In this document: positions 6,075-61,300 of the stretch, piece by piece | Layout: every line of letters begins with the position of its first letter | How positions within the stretch are numbered: position 1 is the first letter of the stretch | Sequence record: NC_054928.1 | DNA from: Escherichia phage vB_vPM_PD112 | Length of the DNA stretch: 64,000 nucleotides | Strand: one strand, 5' to 3' | Notes under the pieces: generated by a model | What the model was told of the DNA's origin: nothing | Database searches by the model: none | What the model saw: the letters and a program-made list of their open reading frames with translations, nothing else | Translations under genes and position numbers: made by a program

Positions 6075-7034
6075 TCACTTCCACTGCATTTCGCATGCCA
6101 ATTGAATGAAAAGATATGCTAAATGTAATTCCGTATTAGCCGCAATTCCATGATACTGGTTATTTTCACCAACAATTTCATACATACGAATAATACTTTG
6201 CGGAGTTACGCGTGTATAAATTTCTTCGGCAAGTTTACCAACGAACCACGAATAATCAGCCGCATATTTTGGTGCTAAAGCTCTGAGTTGTTTAACATCT
6301 TTATTTTTGAGAGACTCAAGAACATCATCAATAGCACCACGATCGTTAGTAACCAGTGATAAAATACCAGCATCCAAAACACCTTTAGATGAATAACTAT
6401 CGAGCTCACCAATAGTTTTACGAAAATCAGGAAAATTCTTTTTAACCAAAGCTGCTACAACTTTCATATCAGCTATAGCAATTCCTTCACGCTTGCAGAT
6501 TTCAGTCAATCGACGAATCATCTGCTTCATCATTTCAATTTTATCTTCATCGGTCGGTTGACCGAATGTGATAACTCGACAGCGTGACTGAAGCGGTTTA
6601 ATAATACCATCAATATTGTTAGCAGTAATAATAATACTACAGTTTGAACTATAAGCTTCCATAAAGGAACGAAGATGTCGCTGAGATTCTGCTAACCCTG
6701 AACGGTCAAATTCATCAATAACGATTACTTTTTGACGACCATCAAATGAAGCGGCGCTGGCAAAATTAGTCAAAGGACCACGAACGAAATCAATTTTACA
6801 ATCTGATCCATTCACAAACATCATATCAGCATTTACATCATGACACAATGCTTTTGCTACAGTTGTTTTACCTGTTCCTGGAGAAGGAGAATGAAGAATA
6901 ATATGTGGAATCTTACCTTTACTTGTAATAGATTTAAAGGTTTCTTTATCAAAGGCGGGAAGAATACATTCATCGATAGTAGATGGACGATATTTCTGTT
7001 CAAGAATGTGTTCTTTTTCATTTACGGTAATCAT
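6075..7034 (-). CDS. 44: clamp loader AAA+ ATPase subunit; probable ATG at 7034 (MITVNEKEH)
   Basis: Walker [11 protein letters not shown], Walker B VIVIDEFD; T4 gp44 synteny. Confidence 0.9.
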
Positions 7035-34559: not shown

Positions 34560-34568
34560 ATCACCTTC

Positions 34569-34754
34569 TTAAAGCGTATTCACATAAGCTATTAATTCGT
34601 TTTCTTTCTTATCAAACCGATCAGCAAATTCTTCCTGCTGTTCGGGAGATAGCGGGCCGTATTCATCATAAAAGGTGTTTGCTTCTGTATGCTCATCTAG
34701 AAGTTCATGGATAAGCTCAAACAATTTATCTTTTTGTTCTTTACTCAGACTCAT
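34569..34754 (-). CDS. hypothetical acidic protein (tk.1 position)
   Basis: 61 aa ORF. Confidence 0.4.
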   Translation of the reverse strand: MSLSKEQKDKLFELIHELLDEHTEANTFYDEYGPLSPEQQEEFADRFDKKENELIAYVNTL

Positions 34755-34920
34755 ATATTAATTTCCAGGAGTTTTAAAATAATTCGCTTTTGCTTAAATA
34801 TTTCCATAGTTAAATGACCAGTATCTTTTTGACCGATTCCAATGGCAAAACCTTTATTGACAGCGAGTTCAATTAAATTATCAAGCTCACGTAACACTTC
34901 ATACTGTAACTCAGAACTAT

Positions 34921-35133
34921 TCATTTCGGTTTACCTTCTTTAACGAAATCTGGATAAGGATAAAATCCCGAATAAAATCCTTCACCTTTATGATTGATGC
35001 ATCCTTTATTAGAACAATAGCACCAATAATCGAAATCACAAGCCATTTCATCGTTGCATAAAGCAAAAACAACTGGCCATTTACACTTTTCACAATGGGC
35101 ATTTTTAAGAATACTAGTTTGGCTCATAACCAT
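34921..35133 (-). CDS. Cys-rich small protein (tk.2 position)
   Basis: 70 aa with about 10 Cys. Confidence 0.4.
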   Translation of the reverse strand: MVMSQTSILKNAHCEKCKWPVVFALCNDEMACDFDYWCYCSNKGCINHKGEGFYSGFYPYPDFVKEGKPK

Positions 35134-35351
35134 GTAACCTTTAAGCAGTATTCTTCTACATGCTGTTTACGACCTTTCTTATCAATAAAGGTATATTCAA
35201 CGAATGTTCCAATGTAGTCTTTATCTACGTCATGTGGACTATTAATTGGGCATTTAGTACGGCAAATGCGTTCCCATTGACGAATAATTACTGCCTTATT
35301 CTTTGGGTCATATGGATGTGGATAATGTATATTCATAATAATGGTTCCCAA
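35124..35351 (-). CDS. hypothetical protein (tk.3 position)
   Basis: 75 aa ORF. Confidence 0.4.
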   Translation of the reverse strand: MGTIIMNIHYPHPYDPKNKAVIIRQWERICRTKCPINSPHDVDKDYIGTFVEYTFIDKKGRKQHVEEYCLKVTWL

Positions 35352-35800
35352 TCAACAATCACAATTTCTAATTTAGAGGAATATGTATCTAAAATCCCCT
35401 CAATAATATCCCAGTTCCCTTTACCTATGCCTGCACCAATCCTAGGCATATAGATTGTAGGTTTAATCAGTTTATTTTCACCAAACTCATTTAATTCTAA
35501 CATACAATTCATTAAAGCGGAATACTCAAAATTTGGCCCTGGTTGAAATTGAGTATAAAGGTTGAAGCAATACGCTTTATGAGTCCTAAAGTATTTTTCA
35601 TAGACTGAGTAAGAACCAAGTTTAGTTACATCACCCCATTCAGTCTGTAATTTATCAGCTTCCAAAATTTTAGGGAAAGCTTTGGTTAATTGACCCGCTA
35701 CGCCTGAACCCATAGTATGAAAACAATTGCATCCATGCGCAATATTTTTACCTTCAGCGAAAAGGGCGACAATATCGCCCTTGATATATTTTACAATCAT
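35333..35800 (-). CDS. macro-domain protein (predicted ADP-ribose binding/hydrolase; tk.4 position)
   Basis: Macro-domain-like signature AHGCNCFHTMGSGVAGQL and RIGAGIG glycine-rich loop. Confidence 0.55.
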   Translation of the reverse strand: MIVKYIKGDIVALFAEGKNIAHGCNCFHTMGSGVAGQLTKAFPKILEADKLQTEWGDVTKLGSYSVYEKYFRTHKAYCFNLYTQFQPGPNFEYSALMNCMLELNEFGENKLIKPTIYMPRIGAGIGKGNWDIIEGILDTYSSKLEIVIVDWEPLL

Positions 35801-36144
35801 CTAGTACTCAATCCTCGATTATAAGAATCTACCAAACGGTCAACCATTGAATGACAAGCGGCTTTATCTTTCTCCTCCGCAACTGAACATTCTAAGGTAT
35901 TCCACTTTTTAGCATATCGTTTTAATAATGTATCGTTTTTGTATCTGCTTGATTTATCTCTTTCTCCGTCTTTATATGCATATATTAATTTCTGCGCAAA
36001 TTCAGCTTGGCATGCTTTATTTTTCCCACAATAATCTGCCGCAGTGCGATTTACATACTCTCTAATTTCAGTATATGATGTATTTGCTAACGCAGAAGCA
36101 GAAAATGAAATTAATCCTATACATAAAACCAAAATTTTAGTCAT
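35797..36144 (-). CDS. vs: Vs (valyl-tRNA synthetase modifier) homologue, secreted-type N-terminus
   Basis: 115 aa, T4 vs length and position. Confidence 0.55.
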   Translation of the reverse strand: MTKILVLCIGLISFSASALANTSYTEIREYVNRTAADYCGKNKACQAEFAQKLIYAYKDGERDKSSRYKNDTLLKRYAKKWNTLECSVAEEKDKAACHSMVDRLVDSYNRGLSTR

Positions 36145-37175: not shown

Positions 37176-37208
37176 AAAATTATACCACAGTCAAGAGGAA
37201 AAGTAAAC
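37176..37208 (-). promoter_or_regulatory. T4-type early promoter upstream of regB
   Basis: Minus-strand read GTTTACttttcctcttgactgtgGTATAATTTT. Confidence 0.6.
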
Positions 37209-58350: not shown

Positions 58351-61300
58351 CAGTAAAAGCACCTTCAGTCACTAGTCTCAGAATTTCCAAGTTATCCGCA
58401 AATCAGGTGCAAGTACGCTGGGATGACGTTGGTGCTAATTTCTACTATTTTGTAGAAATCGCTGAGACAAAAACAAACTCGGGGGAAAATCTCCCGAGTA
58501 ATCAATACAGATGGATTAACTTAGGATATACTGCAAATAACAGCTTCTTTTTTGATAATGCTAATCCATTGACATCGTACATTATTAGAGTAGCTACAGC
58601 TGCGCAGGATTTTGAGCAGTCTGATTGGATTTATACCGAAGAGTTTGAAACTTTTGCTACAAACGCTTATACATTTCAAAACATGATTGAAATGCAATTA
58701 GCTAATAAATTCATTCAGGAAAAATTTACTCTTAATAATTCTGATTATGTCAATTTTAATAATGACACTATAATGGCTGCATTGATGAATGAATCATTTC
58801 AATTCAGCCCGTCATATGTTGACGTTTCATCAATAAGTAATTTTATTATTGGTGAAAATGAGTATCATGAAATACAAGGTTCTATTCAACAAGTATGTAA
58901 GGATATTAACCGAGTTTATTTGATGGAATCAGAAGGGATTCTATATCTTTTTGAGCGTTATCAACCTGTAGTTAAAGTATCTAACGATAAAGGACAAACC
59001 TGGAAAGCTGTAAAGCTCTTCAATGACCGCGTAGGATATCCTTTATCTAAGACTGTATATTACCAATCTGCAAACACAACATACGTTCTAGGATACGACA
59101 AGATTTTCTATGGCCGCAAATCTACTGATGTTAGATGGTCAGCTGATGATGTCAGATTTAGTTCGCAGGATATAACATTTGCTAAACTTGGCGACCAATT
59201 ACATCTAGGATTTGATGTAGAAATTTTTGCCACTTACGCGACTTTGCCAGCTAATGTATACCGCATTGCAGAAGCTATTACTTGCACCGATGATTACATT
59301 TACGTTGTCGCCAGAGACAAAGTTAGATACATAAAAACGAGTAATGCACCTATAGATTCTGATCCATTATCTCCGACATATTCGGAAAGACTTTTTGAAC
59401 CTGATACAATGACTATAACTGGAAATCCTAAAGCAGTATGTTATAAAATGGATTCTATCGGTGATAAAGTTTTCGCTCTTATTATCGGAGAAGTTGAAAC
59501 ATTAAATGCTAATCCTAGAACATCAAAAATAATTGATTCTGCCGATAAAGGAATATATGTTTTAAATCATGCCACGAAAACATGGAAAAGAGTTTTTGGC
59601 AACACTGAAGAAGAAAGAAGACGTATTCAACCTGGATATGCGAATATGTCAACTGATGGTAAATTAGTTTCTCTGTCTTCGAGTAATTTTAAATTTTTAA
59701 GTGATAACATTGTTAATGACCCTGAAACTGCAGCGAAATATCAGTTAATCGGTGCTGTTAAATATGAATTTCCTCGTGAATGGCTAGCTGATAAGCATTA
59801 TCATATGATGGCATTTATAGCAGATGAAAAATCTGATTGGGAAACTTTTACACCTCAGCCGATGAAATACTACGCTGAACCATTCTTTAACTGGTCTAAA
59901 AAATCTAACACACGCTGTTGGATAAACAACTCTGACAGAGCTGTAGTAGTTTATGCTGATTTAAAATACACCAAAGTTATAGAAAATATTCCGGAAACAT
60001 CACCGGATAGATTAGTTCATGAATACTGGGATGATGGTGATTGTACGATAGTAATGCCAAATGTTAAATTCACGGGATTTAAAAAATACGCGTCTGGGAT
60101 GCTTTTTTATAAGTCTTCTGGTGAAATAATTTCTTACTATGATTTTAACTATCGAGTGAGAGACACTGTCGAAATTATTTGGAAGCCAACTGAAGTGTTT
60201 TTAAAAGCATTTTTACAAAACCAAGAGCATGAGACTCCTTGGTCACCAGAAGAAGAGCGTGGACTAGCTGACCCCGATTTAAGACCATTAATTGGCACAA
60301 TGATGCCTGATTCTTATTTGCTACAGGATTCGAATTTTGAAGCATTTTGCGAAGCATATATTCAGTATCTTTCTGATGGATATGGAACTCAGTATAACAA
60401 TTTACGAAATTTAATTCGTAACAAATATCCACGAGAAGAGCATGCATGGGAATATTTGTGGTCAGAGATATATAAAAGAAACATTTATTTAAATGCTGAC
60501 AAACGTGATGCTGTTGCAAGATTTTTCGAATCACGCAGCTATGATTTTTATTCTACTAAAGGAATTGAAGCATCATACAAATTTCTTTTTAAAGTTCTTT
60601 ATAATGAAGAAGTTGAAATTGAAATTGAATCTGGGGCTGGTACTGAATATGATATAATCATTCAATCTGATTCTTTGACTGAAGACTTAGTAGGACAAAC
60701 GATTTATACAGCTACAGGAAGATGTAATGTTACTTATATAGAAAGAAGTTATTCTAACGGTAAATTGCAATGGACCGTAACTATTCATAATCTTTTGGGA
60801 AGATTAATTGCCGGTCAAGAAGTTAAAGCAGAAAGACTCCCTAGTTTCGAAGGCGAAATTATTCGCGGGGTTAAAGGAAAGGATTTGCTTCAAAATAATA
60901 TAGACTATATTAATAGAAGTCGATCATATTATGTAATGAAAATTAAATCCAATTTACCTTCTTCCCGCTGGAAATCTGACGTTATTCGTTTTGTTCATCC
61001 AGTAGGATTTGGATTTATAGCAATTACTCTTTTAACAATGTTTATTAATGTCGGTTTAACTCTTAAACATACAGAGACTATAATTAATAAATACAAAAAC
61101 TATAAATGGGATTCTGGATTGCCTACTGAATATGCTGATAGAGTAGCTAAATTAACTCCAACCGGTGAAATTGAGCATGATTCAGTAACAGGCGAAGCAA
61201 TTTATGAACCTGGCCCAATGGCTGGTGTAGAATATCCTCTTCCTGATGACTATAATGCTGAAAATAATAATTCAATATTTCAAGGTCAATTGCCATCTGA

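Follow-up and report, generated by a model that had tools for sequence, protein, structure and literature searches.

Tk.4 (AdfM), a Gln-type macrodomain encoded by T4-like phages, and its probable action on DarT2-modified DNA

What does a small macrodomain protein do in the tk–vs gene block of a T4-like phage, and from which substrate, if any, does it remove ADP-ribose? The question is raised by one ORF in the window that we analysed (64,000 nucleotides of Escherichia phage vB_vPM_PD112, NC_054928.1). The original prediction, made from the letters of this DNA, had read the ORF as a macro-domain protein and had suggested two roles for it in a phage that itself ADP-ribosylates host proteins, i.e., regulation of that modification or counter-defence against ADP-ribose-based host systems.

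A long-annotated T4 gene in a relative of T4

The gene is orthologous to tk.4 of T4, for which the name adfM was recently introduced. Its product and T4 Tk.4 (NP_049723.1) are identical at 155 of 155 residues, and the six nucleotide differences between the two genes all fall at synonymous third-codon positions. The gene is flanked by vs and tk.3, as in T4 (RefSeq gene order: rI, rI.1, tk, tk.1–tk.4, vs, vs.1, regB), and the tk.3 protein is likewise identical to that of T4; the 100% amino-acid identity and the conserved vs/tk.3 position place the two genes in one orthologous group. This identity with a long-annotated gene had escaped the original prediction, which had nonetheless drawn the coding sequence exactly (35333..35800, minus strand in the ORF list; ATG start, 155 amino acids, 17.5 kDa, a stand-alone macrodomain) and had quoted two peptides that are both present in the product (residues 19–38 and 120–128). 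The tk.4 sequence was already in GenBank X04567 as “ORF 60.5,” the T4 RefSeq note on it reads “phosphatase; A1pp motif,” and its A1pp match was published in a comparative paper (Virol J 2006; PMC1524935).

Of the 727 phage records that match 3.8 kb of sequence around the ORF, the best is Escherichia phage vB_EcoM_IME537 (99.9% identity), and most of the others are Tequatrovirus phages at 95–99% identity; copies of the gene at 99% identity or above are found in 155 phage records. As the flanks are ~97% identical to T4 and the tk.1–tk.2 segment is replaced, the window belongs to a relative of T4, not to T4 itself. Between tk and tk.3 (34560..35122), three minus-strand ORFs (34569..34754, 34751..34924, and 34921..35133) stand in place of T4 tk.1 and tk.2. 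One is of a diverged tk.2-like type (68% nucleotide identity), one of 57 amino acids is phrog_3452, and one of 70 amino acids is a Cys/His-rich phrog_2306 member, suggested by the spacing of its Cys and His residues to be a small zinc binder.

At both ends, tk.4 overlaps its neighbours. The vs stop (TGA) and the tk.4 start (ATG) overlap as ATGA (35797..35800, minus strand; likewise in T4), which implies co-transcription and makes translational coupling probable, and the tk.4 stop (TGA) overlaps the tk.3 start (ATG) in the same manner (35333..35336, minus strand; T4 coordinates 60922–60925). With ATGA overlaps on either side, tk.4 sits inside a run of closely packed genes that are transcribed together. 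GAGGA lies 11 nt 5′ of its ATG. Upstream of the regB–vs.1–vs–tk.4 run, the site that best fits sigma-70 (37179..37207, minus strand; TTTACT, a 17-nt spacer and TG-TATAAT, with 10 of 12 matches) is a tentative early-promoter candidate for the polycistronic message, from a consensus scan only, in which such sites are in no excess in the region (17 observed vs. 18.5 expected from shuffles).

A dedicated promoter or terminator for tk.4 was considered and rejected, as promoter sites occur at the shuffle level and the sole intragenic hairpin is antisense. This terminator-like hairpin (35762..35782, plus strand; eight pairs followed by a T-rich tail, in the 5′ end of tk.4) is probably due to chance, five such sites being present in the region where shuffles give 3.7. 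An antisense ORF of 97 amino acids (35160..35453, plus strand) overlaps tk.3 and tk.4 and is absent from the T4 annotation. The upstream neighbour vs (35797..36144) is the T4 gene most depleted in minimal medium by HIDEN-SEQ (bioRxiv 10.1101/2025.11.20.689424).

Fold, class, and active site

Tk.4 is a macrodomain of the ALC1/TARG1-like class. The product matches the Pfam Macro profile (PF01661) with 27.7 bits against a gathering score of 22 (E = 2.9e-6), over profile positions 2–113 of 118, and it matches PHROG 335 (“phosphatase”) with E = 1.3e-65. AlphaFold2, run on an alignment of 56 sequences, gives a very confident model (pLDDT 95.9, pTM 0.91) with the three-layer alpha/beta/alpha macro fold, and a Foldseek search of the PDB with this model places TARG1, Poa1p, BT1257, and DarG at the top. 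The macro-domain call of the original prediction is thereby borne out, by the very kind of structure prediction that it had proposed as a check. Two glycine-rich loops, predicted to clamp the diphosphate, are present as well, G31-S-G33 and G122-A-G124-I-G126-K-G128, and align with the loops of TARG1, DarG, and SCO6735. The nearest structural and sequence neighbours are ALC1/TARG1-like (TARG1, DarG, SCO6735/BT1257, and Poa1p), and Tk.4 stands clearly apart from the MacroD, viral, PARG, and macroH2A types.

To describe the active site, we aligned Tk.4 with TARG1, two DarG proteins, PhiKZ gp104, BT1257, and SCO6735, and followed its residues through 119 phage and metagenome homologues (34–98% identity) and 68 homologues from bacterial genomes. 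The predicted first ligand-binding loop (residues 22–35, HGCNCFHTMGSGVA; 35696..35737, minus strand) carries Asn25, which aligns with SCO6735 Asn27, the DarG Asn, and gp104 Asn23, together with the G31-x-G33 phosphate-binding motif; H22, G23, C24, N25, C26, and G33 are conserved in 113–119 of the 119 homologues. Mutation of the equivalent Asn lowers activity in both SCO6735 and DarG (PMC9411070). Residues 80–85 (NLYTQF; 35546..35563, minus strand) place Gln84 in the column that holds the catalytic Lys in TARG1 (K84) and Thermus aquaticus DarG (K80) and Gln85 in SCO6735, and both Q84 and Y82 are invariant (119/119 and 68/68 in the two sets). The predicted second, glycine-rich diphosphate-binding loop (residues 119–130, PRIGAGIGKGNW; 35411..35446, minus strand) has Gly124 aligned with SCO6735 Gly128 and Gly126 where TARG1 has its catalytic Asp125; P119, I121, G122, and G124 are invariant among the homologues, as is G33. 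Four further residues (D49, Y82, C26, and N80) are invariant or nearly so in the phage/metagenome and bacterial sets and find no counterpart in SCO6735, DarG, or TARG1. Two of these family-specific invariants, D49 and Y82, may take part in a Lys-independent mechanism.

The DarTG2 phenotype and the probable reaction behind it

DarTG systems stop phages by ADP-ribosylating DNA, and Tk.4 most likely protects the phage from the DarTG2 toxin–antitoxin defence of its host. The evidence is genetic and comes from a HIDEN-SEQ preprint of November 2025 that assigned a function to tk.4. On DarTG2-expressing Escherichia coli, tk.4 was the sole significant hit in a T4 transposon library, and a clean tk.4 knockout made T4 sensitive to DarTG2; the gene was renamed adfM (anti-DarT factor macrodomain), and removal of ADP-ribose from DNA was proposed (all from bioRxiv 10.1101/2025.11.20.689424). 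This requirement on the DarTG2 host was thus established in T4, with a protein identical to the one studied here. It gives genetic backing, against an ADP-ribose-based defence, to the counter-defence role that had been predicted from the sequence, and supplies the deletion phenotype that had been named as a check; for the other predicted role, as a regulator of T4's own ADP-ribosylation, we found no support.

The tk.4/AdfM finding is therefore already known, and our analysis adds no new biology to it. Its residual value is mechanistic, as the T4 enzyme has no equivalent of DarG's catalytic lysine and is akin to SCO6735, a Gln-type protein, and taxonomic, as two unrelated macrodomain lineages bear the name AdfM. 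In the searchable literature we found no biochemical assay of T4 Tk.4, and the only other recent mention of tk.4 that we found there is the ArcZ–tk.4 mRNA interaction in T2, where the transcript was captured with this host sRNA by RIL-seq and no effect was detectable at the protein level. The T2 paper wrongly calls tk.4 a putative thymidine kinase. For hydrolysis of thymidine-linked ADP-ribose (T-ADPr), the evidence is biochemical for SCO6735, DarG, TARG1, and PhiKZ gp104, and genetic only for Tk.4 (PMC9411070, PMC13309987).

How, then, would Tk.4 protect the phage? We consider it probable that Tk.4, made early in infection, hydrolyses the DarT2-made ribose–thymine bond on single-stranded phage DNA through a Lys-independent site formed around Gln84 and Asn25. 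In the sequence of events that we propose, Tk.4 would be expressed early from the regB–vs–tk.4 gene run; DarT2 modifies the phage DNA as it replicates, attaching ADP-ribose to the N3 of thymidine in single-stranded TNTC motifs, and this blocks replication; and Tk.4 would bind this ADP-ribose between its two glycine-rich loops and cleave the ribose–thymine bond, such that the DNA is restored and free ADP-ribose released. Because it has no DarT-binding domain, Tk.4 would act on the DNA lesion rather than on the toxin. The chemistry is probably water-mediated, with Gln84, held by Asn25, positioning the distal ribose as in SCO6735, and the Lys-dependent chemistry of DarG and TARG1 is probably not used.

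Our analysis shows the identity of the gene, its fold, its class, and the make-up of its active site; the removal of ADP-ribose from DNA and the Gln-type mechanism are inferred, the latter by analogy with an enzyme whose catalysis has been dissected. SCO6735 hydrolyses DarT-made T-ADPr on DNA without a catalytic lysine (PMC9411070). Of its mutants, Q85A is inactive, N27S is nearly dead, and G128E reportedly has lower catalytic activity, and in the mechanism proposed for it, which is water-mediated, Gln85 positions the distal ribose (PMC9411070).

Three other accounts of Tk.4 were weighed against this proposal. The first, which we regard as unlikely, is that the ADP-ribose removed by Tk.4 sits on targets other than DNA, i.e., on host proteins modified by Alt, ModA, or ModB (including by RNAylation) or uracil-ADP-ribosylated RNA, which would make it a regulatory eraser or an RNA-repair enzyme for which DarTG2 protection is one facet. 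T4 does encode these three ADP-ribosyltransferases (Alt, ModA, and ModB), but to our knowledge no TARG1-like macrodomain reverses the Arg-linked ADP-ribosylation of the Alt/Mod enzymes. Activity beyond DNA is documented in the class, as uracil-linked ADP-ribose on RNA is cleaved by TARG1, by DarG, and by SCO6735, which is of the Gln type (PMC13036486), and SCO6735 also removes Glu-linked ADP-ribose from protein (PMC9411070). Against this, the sole tk.4 phenotype reported in the preprint is sensitivity on the DarTG2 host, and a T4-specific regulatory pairing is argued against by the presence of stand-alone relatives in at least 520 bacterial-genome stretches, with no neighbour family in more than 7 of the 68 loci analysed and no DarT2 homologue found in them.

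Equally, the site may serve small molecules, given the H-x-C-N-C motif and a Ser/Thr position that Tk.4 has in common with Poa1p. It nevertheless seems improbable that Tk.4 mainly processes small ADP-ribose derivatives (ADP-ribose-1″-phosphate, O-acetyl-ADP-ribose, or ADP-ribose-derived immune signals), with DarTG2 protection as an indirect or secondary effect. The “phosphatase” and “A1pp” names were carried over by domain similarity rather than given on experimental grounds, and no pathway of T4 or E. coli is known to us that makes ADP-ribose-1″-phosphate during infection. Further, tk.4 is the only significant hit on the DarTG2 host, the characterised product of DarT2 is ADP-ribosylated DNA rather than a soluble derivative, and all tested members of the ALC1/TARG1-like class hydrolyse T-ADPr.

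Finally, although the canonical catalytic Lys is missing from Tk.4, some macrodomains are readers only (PMC9503650), and the anti-DarT factors AdfA and AdfB inhibit DarT directly (PMC13309987), we consider it very improbable that Tk.4 is a non-catalytic binder that sequesters DarT2 as an antitoxin mimic or shields ADP-ribosylated DNA, given that it lacks the DarT-binding C-terminal domain and matches the macrodomain part of DarG only, that all residues required for SCO6735 catalysis are conserved in Tk.4 and invariant in its family, and that a stoichiometric shield would need to cover many lesions.

Distribution, origin, and comparison with known macrodomains

By tblastn, 2,749 of 50,697 phage records contain relatives of Tk.4, which are usually labelled “phosphatase,” “macro domain protein,” or “hypothetical”; Escherichia, Klebsiella, Salmonella, Pseudomonas, Vibrio, and Acinetobacter are among the hosts of these phages. 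At least 520 more relatives were found in bacteria by a scan of one genome per bacterial species. We fetched 80 bacterial loci with Tk.4-like proteins, called their ORFs, and clustered two neighbours per side. In the 68 loci analysed, the relatives are stand-alone ORFs of ~140–160 amino acids, no neighbour family recurs in more than 7 of the 68, and the common neighbours (an argC-like gene, an M23 peptidase, and ileS) reflect lineage-level housekeeping synteny. A phmmer search with a single Pseudomonas aeruginosa DarT2 query, which divergent toxins could escape, found no DarT2 homologue among the ORFs of the 80 loci. The captured-antitoxin origin was rejected for want of a DarT2 match (in this single-query search) and of a recurrent neighbour; that the bacterial relatives stand alone, with no DarT2 match nearby, speaks for T4 having acquired a stand-alone macrodomain of wide distribution and not an antitoxin.

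A Nudix-family protein lies within two genes of the Tk.4-like macrodomain in 4 of the 68 bacterial loci (e.g., 6271..6969 in locus L064) and is, as read from its sequence, possibly NrtR-like. Such neighbours hint, for some lineages, at a connection with NAD/ADP-ribose metabolism, though four loci are too few to interpret.

More tentatively, and with appreciable doubt, we suggest that Tk.4 represents a separate and very widespread phage/bacterial family of stand-alone macrodomains, not a captured DarG, that would remove thymine-linked ADP-ribose without a catalytic lysine. The candidate signature of this family is HGCNC … D49 … NxYTQ … PxIGAGxxGxW, and its substrates possibly also include uracil-linked or other ADP-ribose. 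If this is true, AdfM activity arose at least twice in phages (Gln-type in T4 Tk.4 and Lys-type in PhiKZ gp104), and the many “phosphatase” macrodomains encoded by ~5% of sequenced phages would in fact de-ADP-ribosylate DNA or RNA, with a third active-site variant in the ALC1-like class. To predict phage host range on strains that bear DarTG2, it also matters that Tk.4 homologues are annotated correctly.

Membership in DarG itself was rejected, as both DarG models give only a weak match. Tk.4 scores 30.3 bits on the NCBIfam equivalog NF048014 against a 250-bit cut-off, the PADLOC model gives it 36 bits as against 132.9 for PhiKZ gp104, and it covers only the macrodomain part of these models (positions 2–146 of 338 and 2–145 of 329). 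DarG (structures compared: T. aquaticus 5M31/5M3E and Mycobacterium tuberculosis 5M3I) has a C-terminal DarT-binding domain without counterpart in the 155 residues of Tk.4, and its catalytic Lys (K80 in T. aquaticus, in an FPTK motif) is replaced by Gln84. There is no darT gene next to tk.4, whose neighbours are vs and tk.3. By these sequence comparisons, Tk.4 is not a DarG orthologue.

Orthology with PhiKZ gp104 was rejected as well (BLASTP E = 0.005 over 23 residues; 18% identity by hhalign), and the two proteins have only the superfamily in common. PhiKZ gp104 is close to M. tuberculosis DarG (E = 9.4e-25) and has the FPTK motif. It was independently named AdfM in a 2026 Cell Reports paper, where it removes DarT2-placed ADP-ribose from an oligonucleotide in vitro and the N23A mutation reduces removal (PMC13309987). 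As Tk.4 and gp104 are barely alignable, the name AdfM spans two independently recruited lineages. This collision, between a Gln-type protein in T4 and a Lys-type, DarG-like one in PhiKZ, may mislead annotation transfer.

Tk.4 resembles SCO6735 (Streptomyces coelicolor, PDB 5E3B) and BT1257 (Bacteroides, PDB 2FG1/2AFC), the Gln-type ALC1-like proteins that have the Gln at this position in common with it, and the Gln-type set of SCO6735 (N27, Q85, and G128) is matched by N25, Q84, and G124. However, sequence identity to the two is only 26–29%, Tk.4 has its own invariant D49, Y82, C26, and N80, which they do not, and it lacks the mobile loop that marks their subclass. That loop is 5–6 residues longer in SCO6735/BT1257 (about five relative to DarG and TARG1) and bears DNA-contacting lysines; the short loop of Tk.4 appears as a 6-column gap against both proteins in the MAFFT alignment. 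With this loop and its lysines missing, the mechanistic analogy is only partial. The biological contexts differ too, being phage counter-defence for Tk.4 and cellular genome protection for SCO6735/BT1257.

In human TARG1/OARD1 (PDB 4J5R/4J5S), the catalytic dyad Lys84/Asp125 corresponds to Gln84/Gly126 of Tk.4, and Ser occupies the position of Asn25. Yeast Poa1p, an ADP-ribose-1″-phosphate phosphatase (PDB 6LFQ–6LFU), has the H-x-C-N-C motif and the Ser/Thr position of Tk.4 (the latter comparison drawing on the titles of PDB mutant entries) but Ser at the position of Gln84, and it acts on a by-product of tRNA splicing for which no equivalent is known in T4 infection. The functional counterpart of Tk.4 in the same phage is T4 AdfN (gene 30.3; PMC11825919), a stand-alone glycohydrolase that reverses DarT-placed DNA ADP-ribosylation, though with an unrelated (NADAR) fold and with DarT1-made guanosine-ADPr, not DarT2-made thymidine-ADPr, as its target. 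Tk.4/AdfM would thus be T4's answer to the thymidine-modifying DarTG2, complementing AdfN, which deals with the guanosine-modifying DarTG1. Among macrodomains, the best description of Tk.4 is that of a Gln-type family of its own in the ALC1-like class.
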